A DNA stretch of 64,000 nt from Rhodothermaceae bacterium (GTDB lineage Bacteria; Bacteroidota; Rhodothermia; Rhodothermales; Bin80). The stretch covers positions 86,380-150,379 of the forward strand of contig VXLY01000082.1 of NCBI GenBank assembly GCA_009841335.1, in the 5' to 3' direction. The position numbers were made by a program, and so were the translations under genes. This document shows positions 16,513 through 26,552 of the stretch, piece by piece (the stretch's first letter is position 1; each line of letters starts with the position of its first letter). Below the pieces are notes generated by a model. It worked only from the letters and a program-made list of their open reading frames with translations. It searched no databases and was not told the DNA's origin.

Positions 16513-17474
16513 CTGAATATGTGATCGGAGTGGATGTTGGCGGCACGCGCATAAAGGCGGGGGCCGTGCTACGGGATGGTACACTCATGGCGGAGCGTGC
16601 ACGTTCATCGGGGTTCGCGTTGACAGCTGAGGCCCTAGAGGCGGCTGTGATTGAAGAAATTTCTCGAATTCAATCCGATACAGGATATGCTCCTCTAGGA
16701 GTAGGACTGGGGTTTCCGGGAGCAGTAGATCCAACGCAAGGCGTCATCCTTCTTCCGGGAAAACTTCGTTTGGAAGGATACCCGATCGTGCCAAATATAT
16801 CCGACATCTTGAAGCTGCCTGTAATTGCTGATAACGATGGGCGGCTGTCGATTGTGGCCGAAGCTTGCTACGGGAAAGCACAAGGTTATCGATGGGCTGC
16901 CTCAATCACACTGGGGACCGGCGTTGGCTCGGGTATTATGCTTGACGGGCAGATACTTCGTGATCCTCATTTTCAGTTTGGTACACAAGCAAGTCATATC
17001 GTTCAACAATCAGGCAGTGACCGACTCTGCATTACACGTGCCCGTGGAACAGCCAATATCCTCTGCTCTGCAACAGCCCTGGCCGTCATTGCTCGGGATG
17101 GGTTGATCCGTGGATTACCCTCCGTGCTTAATGAGCGCTATTTTGACGACCCTCACAGCGTAGATTTTGCGGCCGTGATTGATGGGGTCGCCCAGAATGA
17201 TGCCCTGTGCCTGGATGCGCTAAAAACCTGGCAAACCGAACTTTCCTGGTTCCTGGTCAGTGTAGTTCACATGTACGCGCCAGAAATCATCATCCTGAGT
17301 GGTGGTGCGGCTTCAGCTGCACCCTATTTTCTGGACGATGTGCGGAAGCATGTTAATCGACATACTTTCCGGTATCCTCCTGGAGAAGATATCCTGATTG
17401 AGGTTTCCGACATAGCCACCTACAACGTTGTATTGGGAGCAGCTTCGATGGTGTGGGAACAGTCCGAGCACTAG
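16509..17474 (+). CDS. ROK-family sugar kinase
   Basis: VIGVDVGGTRIKAGAV (ATP-binding), ADNDGRL, LGTGVGSG. A 4-nt overlap with the SIS gene suggests an operon. Confidence 0.85.
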   Translation: MTEYVIGVDVGGTRIKAGAVLRDGTLMAERARSSGFALTAEALEAAVIEEISRIQSDTGYAPLGVGLGFPGAVDPTQGVILLPGKLRLEGYPIVPNISDILKLPVIADNDGRLSIVAEACYGKAQGYRWAASITLGTGVGSGIMLDGQILRDPHFQFGTQASHIVQQSGSDRLCITRARGTANILCSATALAVIARDGLIRGLPSVLNERYFDDPHSVDFAAVIDGVAQNDALCLDALKTWQTELSWFLVSVVHMYAPEIIILSGGAASAAPYFLDDVRKHVNRHTFRYPPGEDILIEVSDIATYNVVLGAASMVWEQSEH

Positions 17475-18513
17475 GGTTTACCGATTGTTTTATCATCAGT
17501 AACCCGGGAATATTGAGAGTTGCTTTTGTTGCAATAGCTGACTTGGTACATCTACATCATCAATAGCTTCTTGTAACCAAAGCACTTCATCCATTCCGTT
17601 CGGCAACCAACGCCCTCCCCGTCTGACAATCAGTTCGATAACCGGTATACCTCTATTGCACCAGACGCAAAAAACAGAGCATGGCTATCATGCCTGTTTT
17701 TGACTTTCGGCAGTTTGGGATGGCCTGTGTCTCCTATCATTAATACAAATATGCTGGCTTTGCACCAATTCCTCTATTCATGTACATGCTTGAGTTGTCG
17801 TTCTGGGCTCAATGGATCTGGAATTCGCCCGCTGCCACACCGACCAATCCCCCCTCGTTAGGATTTGATCATAACGGTCGTGAATCAAATTGGCAGGCAG
17901 TACATCCCCGTCCCTGACATACTTGATAATTCCTGTGGTCTACGGTGATACGTTCGCAGGAACAGACTAGTCCCTGCCGGAATCGGCGGGGCCTTCACAA
18001 AACAAACCTTGCAATGTGAATCCAATTGTAACCCTATCGGCAAGGGCAAGGATTTGTTTATACCCCCTCTAAGGCGTTCCTTCGTTAGACTCGGATTCTT
18101 AAACAATTGTCAGAGATTCCAATAGATTGTCACTCCTAACCTTCCAACCCAGAACCAATAAGGATCGGAGTAGATCACGAACATGGAAGCAAGTGCAGTG
18201 GTAGCAAAAGAAGTGAGTAGTATATTTTGAATGGGAGAAAACTTCGCTTCTGGATCATAAACGTACGGAGTTCAGCGCGAGATACGAGAGCACAAGTTAT
18301 TCCACAAGCATATCCCGAATCATATCTCAACAAGCCACTCCCCAGTCCACAATCCCTACGCCTTCGTCGTCGTCGAAGAGATCTACACGACCCATACGCA
18401 GGAATTTGCGGGTTGCCGTGAATTTCGAAACAGATTTCCCTGAACTGCTTAGAATGAACGCGAAGCCCGCGATCCTCCCGATATAAGTATGGAGTGATTG
18501 CATCTGATTAGCA

Positions 18514-20022
18514 ATGCGTGTATTACTTGACACTAACATATTAATCCATCGAGAATCGCGGACAGTCGTACGGGATGATATCGGGAGACTTTTCCGCTGG
18601 CTCGACCAACTCAATTACAAAAAGATCATTCACCCAAATTCAGTCAGCGAAATCGAGAGGCACTCCGACCCGAAGGTAGTGTACACCTTCCATCGGAAGC
18701 TAAGCAGTTACCGTATGCTAAAAACTACTGCGCCAGACACTCAGGGAATTGCGTCTCTCCGAGAAGGAGACAAAACCGAAAACGATAGGATTGACACGTC
18801 TATGCTTGCTGAGCTTGCTTCCGACCGTGTCGATTTACTAATTACCGAAGATCGCGGGATTCATTCAAAAGCCACGATTATAGGCCTTGATAGTCGCGTA
18901 TTCACAATTGACGGGTTCCTTGAAAAAGTGACCGCTGAAAACCCTAAACTGGCAGAATATGGGGTTCTTTCTGTTAAGACAAAGCTGTTCGGACACATTG
19001 ACGTTCAGCAAAGGTTCTTTGATTCATTCAGGGAAGATTACCCAAACTTTGACGGCTGGTTCAATCGTAAGGCCGACGAAACAGCGTACGTGTGCCAATC
19101 AGACTCTGGCGAGATAGTTGCATTTTTGTATATAAAGCGGGAGCAGGAAGGCGAGGATTACAGTGACATTATTCCGCCATTCCAGTCTGATCAACGACTG
19201 AAAATCGGCACTTTGAAAGTAGTCTCAAACGGGTATAAACTCGGAGAGCGTTTTCTAAAAATCGTATTCGACAACGCCCTCTTACTTCGCGTTTCCGAGA
19301 TCTATGTAACCGTGTTCAACAAAACTGCCGACCAATTCCGCCTGATCAGGTTTCTGGAAGACTGGGGCTTTATACTGTATGGCAGCAAGGGGAACAGTCA
19401 AGAGTGCGTCTACGTCCGGGACTTTCGACCTAGATTCGATACAAGCGACCCTCGAAAAACATATCCGTACATTTCAAATTCAACCCGGGCATTCATCGTA
19501 CCTATTTACCCTAAGTATCACACAGAACTCTTGCCAGATTCAATTCTCCAAACTGAATCACCGCAGGATTACTCTGACAATAAACCAAATCGCAATGCCA
19601 TAAGTAAGGTATATGTATCTCGCTCTGTCGAGCGGGATCTAAGTACCGGGGACATTATTGTTTTCTATCGGACGAAGTGGGGCGGTCCGGCATTCTACAC
19701 GTCCGTCGCAACCACAATTGGCATTGTGCAGGACGTGAAAACTACGATTCCGCACGAAAAAGCTTTTTTGGAAATATGCCGAAAACGAAGTGTGTTCACG
19801 GATGCCCAGTTACTTGAACAATGGAACTATGATCCTAGCAACCGACCTTTCACGGTTAACTTTCTATCTGTGTATTCATTGCCAAAGCGGCCAAATCTGA
19901 AGGAATTGATGGAAGAAGGCGTCATTAACGAGGCACCTAGAGGATTTGAACAACTTAGTGCTCGATCGTTCCAGCGATTACTTACTATTTCGAATGCCGA
20001 CACGCATTTTGTTGTCGCTTAA
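18514..20022 (+). CDS. three-domain protein: N-terminal PIN-like nuclease + central GNAT-like acetyltransferase fold + C-terminal PUA/ASCH-like domain
   Basis: aa 1-140: MRVLLDTNILIHRE..DTSMLAEL..LITEDRG, the acidic PIN pattern. aa ~150-300: AFLYIKRE..LKIGTLKVVSNGYKLGERFLKIVFDNA..IYVTVF..FLEDWGF, which is GNAT-like. aa ~315-470: RAFIVPIYPKYHTELL..ISKVYVSR..LSTGDIIVFYRT..TTIGIVQDV, a beta-barrel pattern resembling the downstream ASCH protein. Domain calls are by eye only. Confidence 0.6.
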   Translation: MRVLLDTNILIHRESRTVVRDDIGRLFRWLDQLNYKKIIHPNSVSEIERHSDPKVVYTFHRKLSSYRMLKTTAPDTQGIASLREGDKTENDRIDTSMLAELASDRVDLLITEDRGIHSKATIIGLDSRVFTIDGFLEKVTAENPKLAEYGVLSVKTKLFGHIDVQQRFFDSFREDYPNFDGWFNRKADETAYVCQSDSGEIVAFLYIKREQEGEDYSDIIPPFQSDQRLKIGTLKVVSNGYKLGERFLKIVFDNALLLRVSEIYVTVFNKTADQFRLIRFLEDWGFILYGSKGNSQECVYVRDFRPRFDTSDPRKTYPYISNSTRAFIVPIYPKYHTELLPDSILQTESPQDYSDNKPNRNAISKVYVSRSVERDLSTGDIIVFYRTKWGGPAFYTSVATTIGIVQDVKTTIPHEKAFLEICRKRSVFTDAQLLEQWNYDPSNRPFTVNFLSVYSLPKRPNLKELMEEGVINEAPRGFEQLSARSFQRLLTISNADTHFVVA

Positions 20023-20371
20023 GCCGCGTTTCGCTGAAGCTATTTTGGCGGGAGAAAAGAGGTTTGAATATCGACGCTCGATCTTTCGACGGCAAGATAT
20101 TGACACCGTAGTAATTTATGCTTCTACGCCGATATGTAAAGTAGTCGGAGAATTCTCAATCAAACAAGTGCTTTCATTGGACCTTGAAGCACTTTGGGAG
20201 GAAACTCGTGGAGGGGCGGCGATCGATAGACATTATTTCGATCAGTATTTCAAAGGACGATCGTCTGGATACGCTCTGGAGGTGAAAGAAGTGACGCGTT
20301 ATGAGTTGCCGTTATGTCTCCGTCTACAATTTAAGATGAAACGTCCCCCTCAATCGTTTTGCTATCTATAA
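19994..20371 (+). CDS. ASCH (PUA-like) domain protein
   Basis: LLSLKPRFAEAILAGEKRFEYRRSIFRRQDIDTVVIYASTPICKVVGEFSIKQV is the canonical ASCH N-terminal pattern. The ATG at 19994 overlaps the upstream ORF by 29 nt; the longest ORF starts at 19946. Confidence 0.7.
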   Translation: MPTRILLSLKPRFAEAILAGEKRFEYRRSIFRRQDIDTVVIYASTPICKVVGEFSIKQVLSLDLEALWEETRGGAAIDRHYFDQYFKGRSSGYALEVKEVTRYELPLCLRLQFKMKRPPQSFCYL

Positions 20372-20423
20372 CTGAGTTGGGATATTCCATTGTTGGGGAT
20401 CAATTTGGGGAATCCCAGTTTAC

Positions 20424-20431
20424 TAATTTAT
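20424..20431. repeat. target-site duplication (left copy) TAATTTAT
   Basis: Identical 8-mer directly outside both inverted repeats (20424-20431 and 25001-25008). Confidence 0.85.
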
Positions 20432-20466
20432 GGGAATTATAGGGCTAAGTGCCGAAAAAAGTTGGG
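20432..20466 (+). repeat. left terminal inverted repeat (IRL)
   Basis: See the mobile element entry. An extra subterminal copy of AAGTGCCGAAA lies at 20503-20513. Confidence 0.85.
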
Positions 20467-20523
20467 TATTTCAGATGTTTAATTTTTTATTTTTTTATAA
20501 TAAAGTGCCGAAAGACAGATACG

Positions 20524-21477
20524 ATGAAAAAACAAAGAACAGGCCCAGGGAAATCATACAGAAAAGGCATCTCTTGGATCAAACTCATGAAGATGTTCCC
20601 GGATGATAAAACCGCAGAAAAATGGTTCGCTAAACAGCGTTGGGGAAATGAACCTGCCTGTCCTCATTGCGGAAGCACCAACGTCCAGACGGGAGCCGCT
20701 CACCGGACTATGCCTTACAGGTGCAGGGAAAAAGGATGCAGTAAGCGGTTCAGTGTGCGCATAGGAACCGTCATGGAACGTAGCAAATTGGGGTATCAGG
20801 TATGGGCCATAGCCATCTACATCATGAGTACAGGTGTCAAGGGCGTTTCCAGCATGAAACTTCATCGTGACTTGGGCATCGCACAGTCAACCGCTTGGCA
20901 TCTGGCTCACAGGATCAGAAAAACATGGGACACAAAGACCGAGCCGTTTTCTGGCCCGGTTGAAGTAGACGAAACCTATGTAGGAGGAAAAGAAAAAAAC
21001 AAGCACTTTAACAAGGGACTCCGCGCTGGACGCGGCACCGTAGGCAAGACCGCCGTAGTTGGTGCAAAAGACCGTGCAACCAATCAAGTACAGGCAAAGG
21101 TAGTGTCAGACACTACCGCACAGACGCTCACAGGCTTCGTATACAGCACCACGCGCGAAGAGGCAAAAATATACACCGATGACGCAAAAGCATACCAGGC
21201 GTTACGTAGAGCAGCCCATGATACCGTAAAGCATTCTTCCGGACAATACGTAAGAGGAGACGTGCATATCAACGGTATGGAATCTCTTTGGGCTTTGCTG
21301 AAACGGGGCTACTATGGTACGTATCATCACATGTCCCCCAAACACCTTCAACGTTACGTGGATGAGTTTGTCGGTCGGCACAATGCCCGTCACCTGGATA
21401 CCCTGCAACAACTGGAACAAACGGCCAAAGGGCTAGATGGGAAAAGGCTTACGTATAAAGAGCTGGTGGCGGGGTAG
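20524..21477 (+). CDS. IS1595-family (ISXO2-like) transposase
   Basis: N-terminal zinc ribbon CPHCGS..YRCREKGCSKRFSVRIGTVMERSKL, then VEVDETYVGGKEKNKH and a DDE-type core (YTDDAKAY...INGMESLWALLKRG..GTYHHMS.KHLQRYV.EF..RHN). The ATG at 20524 follows IRL; the longest ORF (GTG at 20449) begins inside the IR. Confidence 0.9.
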   Translation: MKKQRTGPGKSYRKGISWIKLMKMFPDDKTAEKWFAKQRWGNEPACPHCGSTNVQTGAAHRTMPYRCREKGCSKRFSVRIGTVMERSKLGYQVWAIAIYIMSTGVKGVSSMKLHRDLGIAQSTAWHLAHRIRKTWDTKTEPFSGPVEVDETYVGGKEKNKHFNKGLRAGRGTVGKTAVVGAKDRATNQVQAKVVSDTTAQTLTGFVYSTTREEAKIYTDDAKAYQALRRAAHDTVKHSSGQYVRGDVHINGMESLWALLKRGYYGTYHHMSPKHLQRYVDEFVGRHNARHLDTLQQLEQTAKGLDGKRLTYKELVAG

Positions 21478-21486
21478 GGGTGGAAA

Positions 21487-22272
21487 TTATGCGCCTATCT
21501 TACTCTCCATTTCCTGCAATAACTGCATTCCAGAATTTAGTGATGGCACCATTGTTTTGCCATCTACATCTGAGAGTCTAGTTAAGGCATTACTGTCAAT
21601 TTCAGATTTATTATGGAATACCAAAATAGTATCAAAGTTCACGTTCTTTTTGATAAGATAATGTAGTTTTAGTGCAGTAATGTTAGCCTTGTCACTATTG
21701 AGAATGCCAAACAGGAACAGATGATTGGCATCCTTTCCCCTAAATCTGTAATCAACTGAATAAGCTCGGGATTCTTGTATTTCAGGGGCGCAGTAATTAA
21801 TTTCTACATGATTCTTATTGATCTTCTTTAAGATGAACTTCCTTAGATCATTGTAGAATGTATTTCTTGATCGTGACTGCTTTTGGATTGCGAGATTATA
21901 TATCCTAGTGATTGCACGACCGTACTGGAAGAGAGCATGTGCTAAATTCTCTATTTGTGAATTTATGAATAACTCTCCCTTGTCTTGGCAAACTTGTTCT
22001 TCACCCAATATCTGATCAATAAGCAAAATACGATTGTTGGTAAGAAATCTATCAAGATCACGTTCGTAGCTTATTCGCATAAATGTGTCGCCCTTGTCAG
22101 ATAGACGTATCCCCTCTTGTGTATTTGATAAATAAATGGGGTACTGATCTCCATCGGGAAACCCAAAGTCCGTTTCTAACATGAGTTCTCCATCAATACG
22201 TTTCTCTACACGAATTGAGGCACATATTTGCTCACATAATTGTCGTTTTAAAATTTCAGGAATCAGTTCCAT
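21487..22272 (-). CDS. hypothetical protein, DUF1828/DUF1829-like (passenger gene)
   Basis: The N-terminal LMLETDFGFPDGDQYPIYLSNTQEGIRLSDKGDTFMRI resembles the DUF1828 pattern (..TPF.d..D.I.IY....g.i.lSDdG.T). The assignment is from memory and not searched. Its start overlaps the upstream ORF by 17 nt. Confidence 0.45.
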   Translation of the reverse strand: MELIPEILKRQLCEQICASIRVEKRIDGELMLETDFGFPDGDQYPIYLSNTQEGIRLSDKGDTFMRISYERDLDRFLTNNRILLIDQILGEEQVCQDKGELFINSQIENLAHALFQYGRAITRIYNLAIQKQSRSRNTFYNDLRKFILKKINKNHVEINYCAPEIQESRAYSVDYRFRGKDANHLFLFGILNSDKANITALKLHYLIKKNVNFDTILVFHNKSEIDSNALTRLSDVDGKTMVPSLNSGMQLLQEMESKIGA

Positions 22273-22768
22273 CGAATAGACTACCCATATAGTGTATTGG
22301 ATTGAATCTTGGCAGATTAAAATCTTCTAACAGACACAAAAAAGCCCCATGAAGTGAGTTGTAACGGATAGTTTCTTTGGCAAAATATTCCGGTTTCCTC
22401 CGTGCAACGATAGCTTCCTCCGTAGCCTTATGAATATGAGGTTTGTATTTAATGATTCCACGGGTATCTTTGTGTATGTGATTTGCTCCGTTATACCGAG
22501 CCAATGTTAACTTTGCCTTGTCTTTGGGTAAATATATGATTCCACAGGAATAATTATTCTCATCATGGATAGATCTGCGTTGATAGACTTCGAACAGGTA
22601 CTCTGGTCGGTCTTTAGGAGCTCCTCTTACATTATAGGTGCGCTTCATGTGGGCATAGTTTTGCCTTCGTGTCCAAGGAGCCCTTGGATTTTCTACAACC
22701 TTCGGGAGATTCCAAAGTCTCTGTATCTCCGTATCAGTGTATCTCAAATCCATGGACCTCATCCACAC
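22256..22768 (-). CDS. hypothetical protein, 165-170 aa (passenger gene)
   Basis: ORF with His-rich motifs YNGANHIHKDTRGIIKYKPHIHKATEE. Alternative ATG starts lie at 22762 and 22753. It is translationally coupled to 21487..22272. Confidence 0.5.
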   Translation of the reverse strand: MWMRSMDLRYTDTEIQRLWNLPKVVENPRAPWTRRQNYAHMKRTYNVRGAPKDRPEYLFEVYQRRSIHDENNYSCGIIYLPKDKAKLTLARYNGANHIHKDTRGIIKYKPHIHKATEEAIVARRKPEYFAKETIRYNSLHGAFLCLLEDFNLPRFNPIHYMGSLFDGTDS

Positions 22769-22946
22769 CTACCGAAGATGATTATGCACATTGCATTTGC
22801 AACCTCCAATGTACGCACATCTACGTAATAAACAGTAACGAGTCAGGTCTCGATACTGATGTTGTGTTTTGTGTTTAGGTTACGTCGTCTGCTGGTTCTT
22901 CGACCGTCAGGTCTCCGCTACACTTGGGGCACCTGGTGGCTTGCTT

Positions 22947-23189
22947 TTAGATTATCTCTAGGCAGTATTTGCATTTATTGAATCCGCCGTCCGCCACTTT
23001 TCTTTTGTTCAATTCAACGTGATCGGGCTTTACAATCAGGGCAATAACAAGACCAATTACGGTTAGAAAAAAACCAATAAAGAACCAACCGATGCCATCC
23101 CGTCCCTTGTTTTCAGCAATCGCCGCACAGAGTATCCCAAAGACCACTGGTATCAGGATGATAACCAATAGACAGCCTGCCGCTTCCAT
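22947..23189 (-). CDS. small two-TM membrane protein with truncated C-terminal zinc ribbon
   Basis: MEAAGCLLVIILIPVVFGILCAAI..GWFFIGFFLTVIGLVIALIV..CKYCLEII then TAA. The same frame continues KQATRCPKCSGDLTVEEPADDVT to the TAA at 22875-22877, which would complete a CxxC..CxxC ribbon. Confidence 0.5.
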   Translation of the reverse strand: MEAAGCLLVIILIPVVFGILCAAIAENKGRDGIGWFFIGFFLTVIGLVIALIVKPDHVELNKRKVADGGFNKCKYCLEII

Positions 23190-23203
23190 TAGTAACTAGA
23201 TGA

Positions 23204-23458
23204 CTATTCGCACCCTGAATTGTCATAGGCCTCAGACGCGGCTAGCCACTTCATTCTATTGGCATATGTGTCTATCCTCACGTAGATGTTCAATAATTCA
23301 GTCTTGCGATCATAGAGTATAGAACACCGCTCTAACCAAGACATGCTATCTGGTTTATACCGCACACCATTCAATAGAAGGGATGTCTTTCGTAGTAACC
23401 GCGACGCTCGCGTGAACGTTCCGACATCATCTTTATTCATTCCACCTGCAACATTCAC
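23204..23458 (-). CDS. hypothetical small protein (78-84 aa)
   Basis: The ORF's GTG start overlaps the TAG stop of the upstream ORF by 1 nt. An alternative ATG lies at 23440. Confidence 0.4.
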   Translation of the reverse strand: MNVAGGMNKDDVGTFTRASRLLRKTSLLLNGVRYKPDSMSWLERCSILYDRKTELLNIYVRIDTYANRMKWLAASEAYDNSGCE

Positions 23459-23676
23459 TATTTTGGCTTTCTCTTCAACCTATAATGTATGCTTTGGCCC
23501 GCTTCGCTTCTAATCTCGTAGTCCCATCTGGGATGTGTCATAGTATCTACTGGGTTCCAAATATATTTAGGGCCATCTTCGGTGTTTTGGATTATGTCTA
23601 TTGCCTCATTCCACGTAGGAGTTTCGACTGCCGGGCCTATTTGCTTGCCGCTAGCATCCAATAGTTTGAACTTCAT
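23458..23676 (-). CDS. hypothetical small protein (72 aa)
   Basis: ATG-initiated ORF MKFKLLDASGKQIG.., first gene of a same-strand run 23676->22875. Confidence 0.4.
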   Translation of the reverse strand: MKFKLLDASGKQIGPAVETPTWNEAIDIIQNTEDGPKYIWNPVDTMTHPRWDYEIRSEAGQSIHYRLKRKPK

Positions 23677-24020
23677 CTTGTAAACCCGTCCGGGCGGTTT
23701 GATTAAGAATACTCAACTGAATTGCAAATCCGTGTGTCTATACACTAATACCAAAAAAGTTCATAAATACACTTTCAAGAATCAAAAACAAGTTGTATAT
23801 TATGAGCGCATTTACCGCGAAGAAGCCCGACATGTCGGGTTGATCGCTGAATAAAACAGCCAGGAACAAACAGGGATTAGCTATCCATGTTGGCAAATAG
23901 GCGGAACCTCTCACAGCCGTGCCCATCCGGGCACAGGGCTTCTCAGATGGTAAATGCACAGCCCGACACCTTCGCGGGCTTCATCCATATCAAACCAAAT
24001 GAGTAAAGGCTCACAATAGG

Positions 24021-24533
24021 ATGCGCAATTTTTTCGTAGTCGTTTTCTCGCTTCTCATTTTCTCGGGATGCACCTCCGTCAATCAAACTGTACTGATGCC
24101 CAACCTGGCTCCGGTCTATCCGGAAATGGTTCAAATCTTCCTTCCCGGAGATTCTTTACCTCCGCATGATCGGGTTGCAATTTTGGCCGGATCCGGCGCA
24201 GATAACTGGTCAAATCGAACTCAACTCTTAGACCACCTCCGTCGCAGAGCCGGTGAACTGGGGGCCAACGGAGTTATTCTTGGTCAAGTAGAAGAATCCT
24301 CTTCCGGCGAAAAGATAGTAGGATATTTAACGGGCTTTGGATCCAGCAGAAAACAAGATGCTATTGCAATATTGATACATTCTACTGTTGAGCAAGAGAA
24401 AATAGCGTCAAGCTGTGAATCTCTAAAAAGCAATATGGACAATGCTTTTCAGGCATACGAAAGACAGAAGAACAATACTAACAGAGAAAGGTGGCAACGC
24501 GCTTCGAGGAAGTACCATGAGGAATGCGGATAA
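24021..24533 (+). CDS. lipoprotein, function unknown
   Basis: Signal/lipobox MRNFFVVVFSLLIFSGCTS. The C-terminal Cys-bounded helical tail is SSCESLKSNMDNAFQAYERQKNNTNRERWQRASRKYHEECG. Confidence 0.6.
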   Translation: MRNFFVVVFSLLIFSGCTSVNQTVLMPNLAPVYPEMVQIFLPGDSLPPHDRVAILAGSGADNWSNRTQLLDHLRRRAGELGANGVILGQVEESSSGEKIVGYLTGFGSSRKQDAIAILIHSTVEQEKIASSCESLKSNMDNAFQAYERQKNNTNRERWQRASRKYHEECG

Positions 24534-24731
24534 ATGAAAAATCTTCTCCTTATGCTTGCCACCATGACAGTTCTTTTGTTCGGTGGTTGCGATTCAGTTT
24601 TCGGGCCGGACTGCCAAGAACTCTACGACAGGATGGAAGCTGCTTGGGATCGGTACTTGGAGAATGAAAACCATTCCAATCGCAAAGCTTGGGCCGATGC
24701 TCGTGATCGGTATTACAAGCATTGTGATTAA
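24534..24731 (+). CDS. small lipoprotein, function unknown
   Basis: MKNLLLMLATMTVLLFGGCDS lipobox. The body CQELYDRMEAAWDRYLENENHSNRKAWADARDRYYKHCD resembles the tail of the preceding lipoprotein. Its start abuts the upstream stop (TAAATG). Confidence 0.55.
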   Translation: MKNLLLMLATMTVLLFGGCDSVFGPDCQELYDRMEAAWDRYLENENHSNRKAWADARDRYYKHCD

Positions 24732-24776
24732 TGAAATAGGATTTCCTATATTAAACACTATGATCAACCCAAACCG

Positions 24777-24935
24777 ATGCCTCAACCAAAGCCTCCTGCA
24801 CCCAAAAAGGAACCTGCCAAGCGTGGGCGACCAGTCAAGAATGACATCATGAAGTTGCAGAGATCCATTCCTGCAACGCCGGAAAAACTGGCAAAGGCTA
24901 TCCTGACCACACCTCCCCGCAAGTCCAAGCCCTGA
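24777..24935 (+). CDS. possible 52-aa basic protein with AT-hook-like KRGRP motif
   Basis: Hand translation gives MPQPKPPAPKKEPAKRGRPVKNDIMKLQRSIPATPEKLAKAILTTPPRKSKP. It is below the ORF-track cut-off and lies just inside IRR. Confidence 0.25.
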   Translation: MPQPKPPAPKKEPAKRGRPVKNDIMKLQRSIPATPEKLAKAILTTPPRKSKP

Positions 24936-24964
24936 AAAATCAGACTGGATTAAATCTTGCGAGA

Positions 24965-25000
24965 CCCCCAACTTTTTCGGCACTTAGCCCTATAATTCCC
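24965..25000 (-). repeat. right terminal inverted repeat (IRR)
   Basis: The reverse complement matches IRL (see the mobile element entry). Confidence 0.85.
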
Positions 25001-25008
25001 TAATTTAT
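25001..25008. repeat. target-site duplication (right copy) TAATTTAT
   Basis: Identical to 20424-20431. Confidence 0.85.
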
Positions 25009-25076
25009 CGATCACTTTCCACTGTCCTTTGAGGAACCAAGCATTTCGGTTATCTAAATCGCGTCGGGGTACTCGC

Positions 25077-26552
25077 TCAGCCTTCCCTATTTCCTTCATT
25101 TCTGGGATTCAACACCTCCCTGACTCGATCCTGCCACCTTGTTAATTCTTGGATTTGAGCCCCACCTAGATTCCCCATGGGTTCCATACTATCCCTTAGT
25201 TCGTAGCTGAACACTTGGTCCAAGGTTACCTGACGTCGCTCCCTATGCACTAACTGCCGTGCCCGACAATAATCTTCCCACCGCTCTATTCCGACTTCAT
25301 CCAAAACCTCTGGAAAATTTCTTGCAATGTATCTGAAAATCAGAGGCTCAACGCGTCGATCATTTGATCGGATCGTACGCAAATCAAAATTTGGGCCCTC
25401 CTGCAGAACCTGGTACATCAGAAGTTCATCCTCACCAGAAAAGAAGCCATCGTAAATCGCCTCATCTGGATCCAGCGGTCGGGAATACCGAAGTCTTTTT
25501 TCAGCTGCCTCGAATTCGAGAAACCGATGAAGCGCATGTTGCCGCTCACGGGCAGCATACTCTTGAAGCATTTCGTGGCGCGCTTGTACTTCGGCTTCAC
25601 TCAATTGCATTTTTGCAAGAATATCGTCAATTGACAATCCAGGTGAAACCAATTCCGGCACGTTTGACCACCCACATACAAACGGAGATTGATTGCACTT
25701 GAACGACCGAATTGAACACCAGGCCTTGCGCCTGTCCTCAGGTATCCACTGCTCAAATGGTTTTAGTAGAGGTCTGGGGTCATTCGACAAATCAAAACCG
25801 TAGGCACTGTTACCATTTCGATAATCCAGAGGAGTCAGCAAGGTCGCGCAATGTCGGCTCGTATCAATTTGCCCGACTACATGAAGTACTGGTTCAGTTG
25901 TGCGAATGATATCCAGCACTGTCTTCTTGAAACGTAAGCCCAACGCATACGCCCATAGATCACGAGCCCGTTCACGTACTAGTCTCGCGATGGCTAGCAT
26001 GTGAGCTACATCTGCCACCGCATCGTGAGATGATTCCGATGACCGACTATCCAGGTTTGCTTCCGACAGAAATTCTAGTTGAAAGGACGGCTTCCCGCTA
26101 CTCTTTTTCGGCCAGCGTTTAAGTGCTTCAGGTCTCAAAAGAAATGCTGCCCGCATTAGCTCCAGTGTGTCCCAATACGTGTTTCCATGTTTCCAAGCCC
26201 AGGCATACGGATCCCGCAGGTTACGATAGAACAGCATCCTGGTCATCTCATGATCGAAGCCCATGCCGTTGTATGCCACACTGCACGTACCTCTCTTGCT
26301 CAATTCAGCATGAATTAATCTGGCAAACTCACTTTCCGGTAATCCCTCTCTGTGAGCTTGCATCGGCATTATCCCATGAACACTGACCGCACCCGGTCCA
26401 ATAGGACAATCCAGCCCCGGCTTACACTTTAACTGAATTGGAGGCGCAAGCTCAACCAGTTCTTCATCCGTTCTCACCCCGCCAAACTGTACGATGCGAT
26501 CTCGGCGCACATCCTTCCCCCAAGTTTCATAGTCATACCAGAAAAACTCCAT
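25077..26552 (-). CDS. sbcB: exodeoxyribonuclease I
   Basis: FFWYDYETWGKDVRRDRIVQFGGVRTD, HGIMP, YNGMGFDHEMTRMLFYRNLRDPYAWAW, SHDAVADV and FRYIARNFPE are colinear with E. coli SbcB as I remember it. Confidence 0.9.
   Translation of the reverse strand: MEFFWYDYETWGKDVRRDRIVQFGGVRTDEELVELAPPIQLKCKPGLDCPIGPGAVSVHGIMPMQAHREGLPESEFARLIHAELSKRGTCSVAYNGMGFDHEMTRMLFYRNLRDPYAWAWKHGNTYWDTLELMRAAFLLRPEALKRWPKKSSGKPSFQLEFLSEANLDSRSSESSHDAVADVAHMLAIARLVRERARDLWAYALGLRFKKTVLDIIRTTEPVLHVVGQIDTSRHCATLLTPLDYRNGNSAYGFDLSNDPRPLLKPFEQWIPEDRRKAWCSIRSFKCNQSPFVCGWSNVPELVSPGLSIDDILAKMQLSEAEVQARHEMLQEYAARERQHALHRFLEFEAAEKRLRYSRPLDPDEAIYDGFFSGEDELLMYQVLQEGPNFDLRTIRSNDRRVEPLIFRYIARNFPEVLDEVGIERWEDYCRARQLVHRERRQVTLDQVFSYELRDSMEPMGNLGGAQIQELTRWQDRVREVLNPRNEGNREG

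Follow-up and report, generated by a model that had tools for sequence, protein, structure and literature searches.

The gene pair and its transferable unit

The window analysed here is a stretch of 64,000 nucleotides (nt) on contig VXLY01000082.1 of a Rhodothermaceae bacterium, and this report deals with two overlapping genes in it, named A and B, which encode a three-domain protein and a small ASCH protein, respectively. The same locus, flanked by genes for a ROK-family protein and for exonuclease I, is present in several sponge-metagenome assemblies, e.g. GCA_009841705.1 and GCA_009836725.1. The pair consists of the following features:

18391 to 18513, forward strand: conserved 5' leader or promoter region of the cassette; the 85% DNA homology to the closest relative locus (L090) starts at 18391
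18514 to 20022, forward strand: gene A, an open reading frame (ORF) of 502 amino acids (aa) for a fusion of PIN, GNAT-like and EVE (PUA-like) domains; PDC-M11A
18514 to 18948, forward strand: PIN domain, aa 1-145, assigned by invariant acidic residues, PIN_3 matches in the family and the strand/helix alternation of the model
18970 to 19428, forward strand: GNAT-like domain, aa ~153-305, assigned by Foldseek matches to GNAT structures; most conserved core of the family
19471 to 20019, forward strand: PUA-like or EVE domain, aa ~320-502, assigned by EVE (PF01878) matches in the family; includes a disordered loop, aa 342-360
19994 to 20022, forward strand: overlap of A and B, 29 nt, read directly in the sequence; translational coupling
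19994 to 20371, forward strand: gene B, ASCH protein of 125 aa; PDC-M11B, ZmASCH-type

Both genes are intact and have retained all residues that are invariant in their close families. The start of gene A at 18514 is the correct one, because the N-terminus of the protein (MRVLLDTNILIHRE...) agrees with the N-termini of its homologues. The ORF list called the second gene as a protein of 141 aa with a TTG start (19946-20371, forward strand); since the homologues of B are almost all 125-126 aa long, the true start is the ATG at 19994. A first-pass annotation, made from the letters of the window alone, had recognised an ASCH protein of 126-141 aa that overlaps the preceding gene by 29 nt. Its ASCH identity and the overlap stand, the latter for the ATG at 19994, and the length is corrected to 125 aa. 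At related loci, A/B overlaps of approximately 4, 23 or 29 nt are usual. No small VapB-like ORF upstream of A is conserved, either in the window or across the related loci, in agreement with the early remark that no VapB-type antitoxin ORF precedes the PIN domain.

The closest relative pair (L090) is 83% (A) and 86% (B) identical to the pair in the window and lies in an unrelated genomic context. The DNA homology between the two loci is confined to 18391-20391, and the sequence upstream of 18391 is unrelated; hence, the transferable unit is a cassette of 2.0 kb that comprises a 123-nt leader and the two genes. This cassette has a GC content of 0.455 compared to approximately 0.50 in the flanks, and it is chromosomal, outside any prophage or plasmid. 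These observations support the view that A and B constitute a dedicated two-gene module of the conflict type (toxin/defence), which is coupled in translation and lies in acquired DNA.

An architecture described before

The first-pass annotation knew of no described system with this architecture, which turned out to be wrong. When the models of PADLOC-DB v2 were applied, in which PDC stands for phage defence candidate, both proteins matched PDC-M11 from end to end: protein A hit PDC-M11A (PDLC04422) at an E-value (E) of 3.2e-202, with its residues 1-501 aligned to positions 1-500 of the 501 in the profile, and protein B hit PDC-M11B (PDLC04425) at E 6.1e-45, the two being adjacent on the same strand. 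The searchable literature contains a single mention of PDC-M11, as PADLOC output, and no published test of it.

Moreover, the family has been treated in two computational studies. Proteins with PIN_15/PIN_17 domains fused to a GNAT-like and a PUA-like domain were reported together with a second PUA/ASCH protein (COG4933), which is always found in the operon, and an ATPase, which is sometimes found there; the VapC-like PIN group typically cuts RNA (Matelska 2017, PMC5499597). Likewise, '(PIN)-GNAT-EVE' operons almost always encode an ASCH protein and often an AAA_17 ATPase, they are linked to type I restriction-modification (R-M) systems, and their PIN-less form resides in prophages; these operons were regarded as putative toxin-antitoxin (TA) systems, none of which was characterised at that time (Bell 2020, PMC7641849). 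Both studies cite Iyer 2013 for the architecture of PIN-GNAT-PUA/EVE plus ASCH. A toxin/defence-type module is thus the prevailing prediction for the family, and for its mechanism no publication was found in the searchable literature.

Domains and conserved residues of protein A

Searches of Pfam and NCBIfam with A itself gave no significant match, and its domains were assigned through the family, i.e. by means of 100 diverse representatives that are 27-48% identical to A. EVE (PF01878) was matched by 22 of these representatives, PIN_3 (PF13470) by 16 and Acetyltransf_1 by 11, and fused ASCH and TIR domains were found in 12 and one of them, respectively. The AlphaFold2 model of A (pLDDT 80, 49 homologues) consists of three folded units with a weak linker, at aa 1-145, ~153-305 and ~320-502, the loop 342-360 being disordered. 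A Foldseek comparison of this model with the PDB yielded a large number of GNAT structures with a probability of 1.0 (E 7e-6 to 2e-4) and, for the PUA-like barrel, ZmASCH at a target TM-score (TMt) of 0.72. GNAT structures dominate this list; the PIN assignment comes from the sequence and from the alternating strand/helix pattern at the N-terminus of the model, which is consistent with a PIN fold. Among the sequences of the PDB, a profile search with A found marginal GNAT matches only (E 0.26 to 1.7). Family matches, model and Foldseek bear out the initial three-part reading of A as PIN, GNAT-like and PUA-like. It had also been proposed that the C-terminus of A repeats the layout of protein B. 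This likeness exists at the level of the fold, where Y385 of A ('...VFYRT') is the counterpart of a Tyr common to ASCH and EVE proteins according to Kim 2017; a repeat at the sequence level was rejected, the hhalign probability being 0.1%.

The acidic tetrad of the PIN domain (D6, E46, D94 and D113) is invariant in the 49 close homologues, i.e. the PIN domain is intact in this subfamily. Among the more diverse relatives the catalytic positions are often replaced, with D6 changed to G in 14 and D113 to N in 11 of the 73 PIN-bearing representatives. The most constrained residues of the diverse set fall in the GNAT-like core, namely W182 (100%), E210, K230, Y264, G285 and F286 (99% each), T266 and E297 (98%), K208 and K235 (96%), G240 (95%), E245 (93%) and G244 (89%); in the reader (EVE) domain P318 (100%), K365 (98%) and Y385 (93%) stand out. 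The analysis thereby sharpens the view of the family: the GNAT-like core, not the PIN domain, is its invariant part.

Within this core, GNAT motif A reads N239-G-Y-K-L-G244 instead of the canonical Q/R-x-x-G-x-G/A, and 91% of the family have K or R at position 242. Because G240, K/R242 and G244 are themselves conserved, the motif seems to be altered rather than simply decayed. From the degenerate motif A a loss of acetyltransferase activity was inferred (Matelska 2017, PMC5499597).

Protein B and the question of an acetyl mark

Protein B matches the ASCH family of Pfam at E 2e-5 and ZmASCH (5GUS) among the PDB entries at E 7.5e-19. Its model (pLDDT 95.8) superimposes on ZmASCH with a query TM-score (TMq) of 0.90 and a root-mean-square deviation of 1.6 Å, and YqfB is matched less closely in fold (TMq 0.56-0.60, E 5e-4). 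Residues G20, K22, E25 and R27 form an octapeptide of the G-K-E-R type and are, like Y42 and S121, invariant among the close homologues of B. Mutagenesis has demonstrated that Y47, K53 and S128 of ZmASCH matter for nucleic-acid binding or cleavage (Kim 2017); they correspond to Y42, K49 and S121 of B, with K49 being the consensus residue at its position. In PADLOC, ZmASCH (ZMO0922) scores as PDC-M11B (E 3e-29). On these sequence and model comparisons, B is related to ZmASCH at the level of an orthologue. ZmASCH, the only one of these ASCH proteins whose biochemistry has been studied, binds nucleic acids and acts in vitro as a Mg2+-dependent endonuclease on single-stranded RNA (ssRNA; Kim 2017). 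In Zymomonas mobilis, ZmASCH is encoded by an orphan gene without an A-like neighbour (L087, 4825-6447). The possibility that it belongs to a GNAT-EVE operon was checked and dismissed, since the gene 48 nt upstream of it encodes a protein of 375 aa that shows no relationship to A in BLASTP or PADLOC and has no Pfam match.

The combination of a GNAT-like fold with an ASCH partner raises the possibility, which goes back to the first-pass annotation, that the system writes, reads and erases an acetyl mark: the GNAT-like domain would transfer an acetyl group to RNA or DNA, either to a base or to an aminoacyl group, the EVE domain would read the mark, the PIN domain would cut, and the ASCH protein would remove the acetyl group. 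In a variant wording, the divergent GNAT core would put an acyl mark on a base, similar to N4-acetylcytidine (ac4C), or on charged tRNA, and the PIN domain, or TIR in other clades, would act as executor. Nucleic-acid acetylation was proposed for this architecture by Iyer 2013, as reported in PMC7641849 and PMC5499597, and the near-invariant charged and aromatic residues in the most conserved part of the family agree with it. However, motif A is replaced by N-G-Y-K-L-G, from which the loss of activity was inferred, and in the Foldseek comparison A is not especially close to toxins that acetylate tRNA, the value for AtaT (7chd_B, TMt 0.43) being no better than for generic GNATs. The ASCH side is similarly divided. 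ASCH proteins include ac4C amidohydrolases, and a 2026 preprint reports that 19 of them, ZmASCH among them, removed ac4C from tRNA in vitro; but in the case of ZmASCH this 'removal' is ambiguous, because the protein is also an RNase, and according to the same preprint it was inactive on free ac4C and caused no significant decrease of ac4C when overexpressed in E. coli. B has kept all four octapeptide residues, yet in the GKER form and not in the YqfB-type GKTR form. On balance, we consider an acetyl-based mechanism unlikely. If true, it would mean that immunity in bacteria and archaea can follow a chemical logic not seen before, and it would give a function to the widespread orphan ASCH proteins.

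Spread of the family and its gene neighbourhoods

More than 4,400 homologues of A were found, and the family comprises 1,867 clusters at 50% identity. For the comparison of gene neighbourhoods, 80 genomic loci were taken from one-per-species genomes, all of which encode proteins 52-68% identical to A. They belong to bacteria of the Acidobacteriota, Chloroflexota, Bacteroidota, Cyanobacteria, Proteobacteria, Bacillota, Verrucomicrobiota and other phyla as well as to archaea of the Thermoplasmata, Nanoarchaeota, Bathyarchaeia and Altiarchaeota. Copies of this similarity in many bacterial phyla and in archaea indicate horizontal transfer. Gene B comes immediately after A in 72 of the 80 loci and follows with one intervening gene in three more; among the remaining five, three are uninformative at contig ends and two truly have no downstream B. 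The two genes thus co-occur, as the first-pass annotation had suggested to check, in 75 of the 77 informative loci, and A and B are obligate partners.

Several variations of the architecture occur besides the form in the window, namely GNAT-EVE alone, ASCH-PIN-GNAT-EVE, PIN-GNAT-EVE-ASCH with a C-terminal ASCH domain of the M11B type, ASCH-GNAT-EVE, and TIR-GNAT-EVE with a ThsB-like TIR domain; in some clades ASCH is therefore fused to the N- or C-terminus of A. In the protein P0352 (532 aa) the ThsB-like TIR domain (PADLOC ThsB, E 7.5e-53) replaces PIN in front of the same GNAT-EVE core, a kind of swap that is typical of immune proteins. We read the GNAT-EVE part as the functional core and PIN or TIR as exchangeable effectors. 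Alphaproteobacterial versions carry a helix-turn-helix (HTH) domain of the XRE type fused to ASCH, encoded upstream of A, and on Rhizobium plasmids the order is HTH(XRE)-ASCH, PIN-GNAT-EVE, AAA_17. With HTH-ASCH in the first position, this layout looks like an autoregulating antitoxin or regulator. An AAA_17 gene is present in 23 of the 80 loci, mostly upstream of A and with a 4-nt overlap. The other nearest neighbours are mixed and include some R-M, HNH, DUF1016/YhcG, AAA_13 and Schlafen-type helicase genes.

In a few loci of Bacteroidota, from Hymenobacter and Pontibacter (L016 and L020, 9524-10648; L063, 9858-10865), an extra gene for a protein of approximately 335-375 aa without a Pfam or PADLOC match adjoins the pair, and in Hymenobacter it lies between A and B. 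It may represent a lineage-specific accessory component.

Genes of type I R-M systems recur near A in approximately 10 of the 80 loci (HsdM in 10, HsdS in 5, HsdR-like in 4). They fit a modification-dependent, type IV-like restriction, in which EVE and ASCH would recognise phage DNA by its hypermodified bases and guide the nuclease to it, thereby complementing the neighbouring type I system with neither self-toxicity nor an antitoxin relationship. The fusion of a PUA-like reader to a nuclease is a known design of modification-dependent restriction, and the ASCH protein of these operons was proposed to bind modified DNA with reference to HsdS-ASCH and HTH-ASCH fusions (Bell 2020, PMC7641849); the Foldseek matches of B include the N-terminal domain of McrB and the 5-hydroxymethylcytosine-specific PD-T4-3 enzyme, both of them weak. 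However, the nuclease of A is a PIN of the VapC-like group, which typically cleaves RNA, and the known substrate of ZmASCH is ssRNA. The highly conserved GNAT-like core would be left without a role, and PIN-less GevT-type versions, which are labelled toxins, are carried by phages themselves. We consider this reading unlikely.

A housekeeping enzyme pair for RNA modification or RNA turnover, without any role in conflict, appears highly improbable. PUA, ASCH and EVE domains are common in translation-related enzymes and some neighbours of the pair are indeed housekeeping genes; but the distribution of the family is sporadic and crosses the domains of life at high identity, close relatives sit at different loci, the cassette has a low GC content, phages and plasmids carry members of the family, and one clade has TIR in place of PIN.

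Relatives on phages and plasmids

Plasmids, including 11 conjugative ones, temperate phages and prophages were found to carry members of the family. In the Methanothermobacter prophage psiM100 (L092, 1554-4846), ORFD (492 aa) matches PDC-M11A in its PIN form and ORF5 (129 aa) matches PDC-M11B; ORFD is part of the 'inserted fragment IFa', whereas the annotation of ORF5 notes its similarity to ORF5 of phage psiM2. When phage genomes were searched with tblastn, PIN-less homologues came to light in lambdoid E. coli phages. The GenBank entry PV340567.1 labels the members of such a PIN-less pair 'GevT toxin' and 'GevA antitoxin', respectively. The identity is 36% between GevT and residues 153-501 of A and 47% between GevA and the whole of B, and in PADLOC the two phage proteins match PDC-M11A and PDC-M11B, respectively. 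In lambdoid phages such as PhiR47_2 (L089, 2225-4411), gevT and gevA lie directly downstream of cI and overlap by 23 nt. Of the complete E. coli genomes, 275 out of 5,426 contain the pair at 99% identity or more, and many of these belong to O157:H7; RefSeq names the proteins 'hypothetical protein' and 'ASCH domain-containing protein'. A blastn search of the 5,426 genomes with the PIN-bearing Citrobacter copy gave no match, i.e. only the PIN-less GevTA type was found in E. coli. Judged by the homology of both partners, the pair in the window is a PIN-bearing relative of the phage pair labelled GevT/GevA. Together with the dedicated coupling of the two genes, these labels are in favour of the first-pass proposal of a toxin/defence-type two-gene module in acquired DNA.

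Carriage by plasmids and prophages is also in favour of the idea that the module only serves its own maintenance through post-segregational killing, or that the PIN-bearing host version degrades the products of phage GNAT-EVE (GevT-like) toxins. The latter is a speculation of Bell 2020 (PMC7641849), where PIN-bearing and PIN-less forms were found to differ in distribution. Here, however, the cassette is chromosomal and outside any prophage or plasmid, and the adjoining transposon is a separate insertion. An addiction or counter-toxin role is very unlikely in our opinion.

A proposed mode of action

Our preferred interpretation, which we hold with a probability of roughly 0.55, is that 18391-20391 represents a self-contained, horizontally mobile conflict module, in which A is a nucleic-acid-directed effector whose PIN domain cuts, and B restrains A. 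A TA-like or abortive defence module is the most likely function. In such a scheme, the GNAT-like core and the EVE reader of A would engage nucleic acid, most likely modified RNA such as tRNA, and the N-terminal VapC-like PIN nuclease with its intact acidic tetrad would do the damage. Translational coupling would ensure that B is made in a fixed ratio to A. As a nucleic-acid-binding protein of the ZmASCH type, B could keep A in check either by binding to it or through the substrate that both share, for which B would compete or which it would process. If a phage infects the cell or the cassette is lost, the balance of A and B would be upset, with growth arrest or abortive infection as the result. 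Both the HTH-ASCH-first arrangement and the toxin/antitoxin labels of GevTA point to B restraining A.

Nevertheless, several points weigh against this interpretation. In the window gene B follows gene A, an order that is atypical for a type II antitoxin, and the fusions of ASCH to A are unusual for a labile antitoxin. The orphan status of ZmASCH in Zymomonas implies that an ASCH protein can function alone and speaks against a simple TA picture. Because the catalytic residues of the PIN domain are often lost in the diverse relatives, PIN does not serve as effector throughout the family, and the actual activity may lie in the GNAT-like core. The immediate neighbours of A and B are often housekeeping genes. 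Moreover, PDC-M11 has only candidate status in PADLOC; the labels GevT and GevA come from a GenBank annotation, for which no paper was found in the searchable literature, and an experimental paper on any member (PDC-M11, GNAT-EVE, GevT/GevA or PhiR47) was likewise not found there.

The family is very widespread, as it occurs in bacteria, archaea, on plasmids and, via the lambdoid prophage version, in approximately 5% of the complete E. coli genomes. It joins two classic toxin folds with two folds that read modified bases, and its PIN/TIR swap resembles that of immune effectors, which makes it a worthwhile target for experiments. The clean 2.0-kb cassette could be cloned as it is.

DNA next to the cassette

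The region 17475-18390 upstream of the cassette comprises approximately 0.9 kb of unmatched sequence without an ORF above 73 aa and has a GC content of 0.462. The first-pass annotation had spoken of about 1 kb of decayed DNA at this place; what the sequence shows is a scarcity of ORFs, for which decay is one possibility. The region is identical in the sister contigs of the sponge metagenomes, but shows no relationship to the sequence that precedes the closest PDC-M11 relative. A decayed AAA_17 gene was considered here and ruled out, because tblastn with the 23 AAA_17 neighbours gave no match to a gene or remnant in the window, including the approximately 1 kb upstream of A. Rfam contained no match at E <= 0.1 to a non-coding RNA or riboswitch in 17000-25500, and a scan for sigma-70 promoters gave no higher number of sites than in shuffled sequence.

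Downstream of the cassette lies one further feature:

20432 to 25000: IS1595-type transposon of 4,569 bp, recognised by terminal inverted repeats and a target-site duplication

This element, which the first-pass annotation had described as an IS1595 insertion at a distance of 53 nt, begins 60 nt after the stop codon of B and is a transposon of 4.6 kb instead of a 1-kb IS. Its terminal inverted repeats of 35 nt (20432-20466 and 24966-25000) are 91% complementary, and it is bordered by a perfect 8-bp duplication of the target site (TAATTTAT, at 20424-20431 and 25001-25008). With its own target-site duplication, the transposon is an insertion separate from the cassette. Its GC content is 0.443, and it carries a transposase gene (20449-21477) and about eight passenger ORFs. 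Among them is an overlapping gene pair on the reverse strand (21487-22768), which encodes a protein of 170 aa (22256-22768) that weakly matches DUF6978 and a DUF1828 protein of 261 aa (21487-22272) that partially matches the PADLOC candidate PDC-M24B (E 1e-12). A PDC-M24A partner of the DUF1828 protein was not detected. The DUF6978/DUF1828 pair may represent a second defence-candidate cargo.

Comparison with known systems

The architecture has already been described computationally, and the locus is a new copy of a known system: it adds one more copy, from a bacterium of a sponge metagenome, of an already catalogued cassette. As end-to-end matches, the two proteins show no sequence difference from PDC-M11, which itself has the status of a candidate. 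With the (PIN)-GNAT-EVE plus ASCH operons (Iyer 2013/Matelska 2017/Bell 2020), the pair shares the three-domain protein and the ASCH partner, and the ties of these operons to type I R-M systems and mobile elements are reproduced in the related loci; the copy in the window differs by lacking the optional AAA_17 gene and the HTH fusion to B. The similarity to GevTA extends to both partners, to the overlap of the genes (23 nt in the phage, 29 nt here) and to the PDC-M11 matches, but GevT has no PIN domain and is prophage-borne beside cI, whereas A has an intact PIN domain and is encoded in a cassette outside any prophage.

For protein B alone, the closest comparison is ZmASCH (PDB 5GUS/5GUQ), which it resembles in sequence, fold, cleft residues, the GKER octapeptide and the PDC-M11B match. 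The difference is that ZmASCH is encoded by an orphan gene, and that the ssRNA-nuclease activity is established for ZmASCH and can be predicted for B by homology. The ac4C amidohydrolases of the YqfB type have a GK(T/S)R octapeptide and a length of approximately 103 aa, in contrast to GKER (with E25) and 125 aa in B. Type IV restriction systems employ DNA endonucleases of the PD-(D/E)xK, HNH or GIY-YIG type fused to a modified-base reader; here, reader domains (EVE and ASCH) are present and the nuclease is a VapC-like PIN, of a group that usually cleaves RNA; it may act on DNA or on RNA.

Finally, the classic TA systems share single folds with A. VapBC resembles the pair in the VapC-like PIN fold with its acidic tetrad and in the small, mobile, overlapping genes. 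However, no VapB of the ribbon-helix-helix (RHH), AbrB, MazE or PHD type is encoded directly upstream of gene A, and the VapBC toxin is a stand-alone PIN protein of approximately 130-150 aa, whereas the PIN domain of A is the first 145 aa of a three-domain protein of 502 aa. The GNAT-type systems (TacAT, AtaRT, KacAT and ItaRT) resemble A at the level of the GNAT fold, but motif A is non-canonical in A and the partner is an ASCH protein instead of an RHH/DUF1778 antitoxin. In contrast to both VapBC and TacAT/AtaRT, protein A fuses the two toxin-type domains and a reader domain in one protein.

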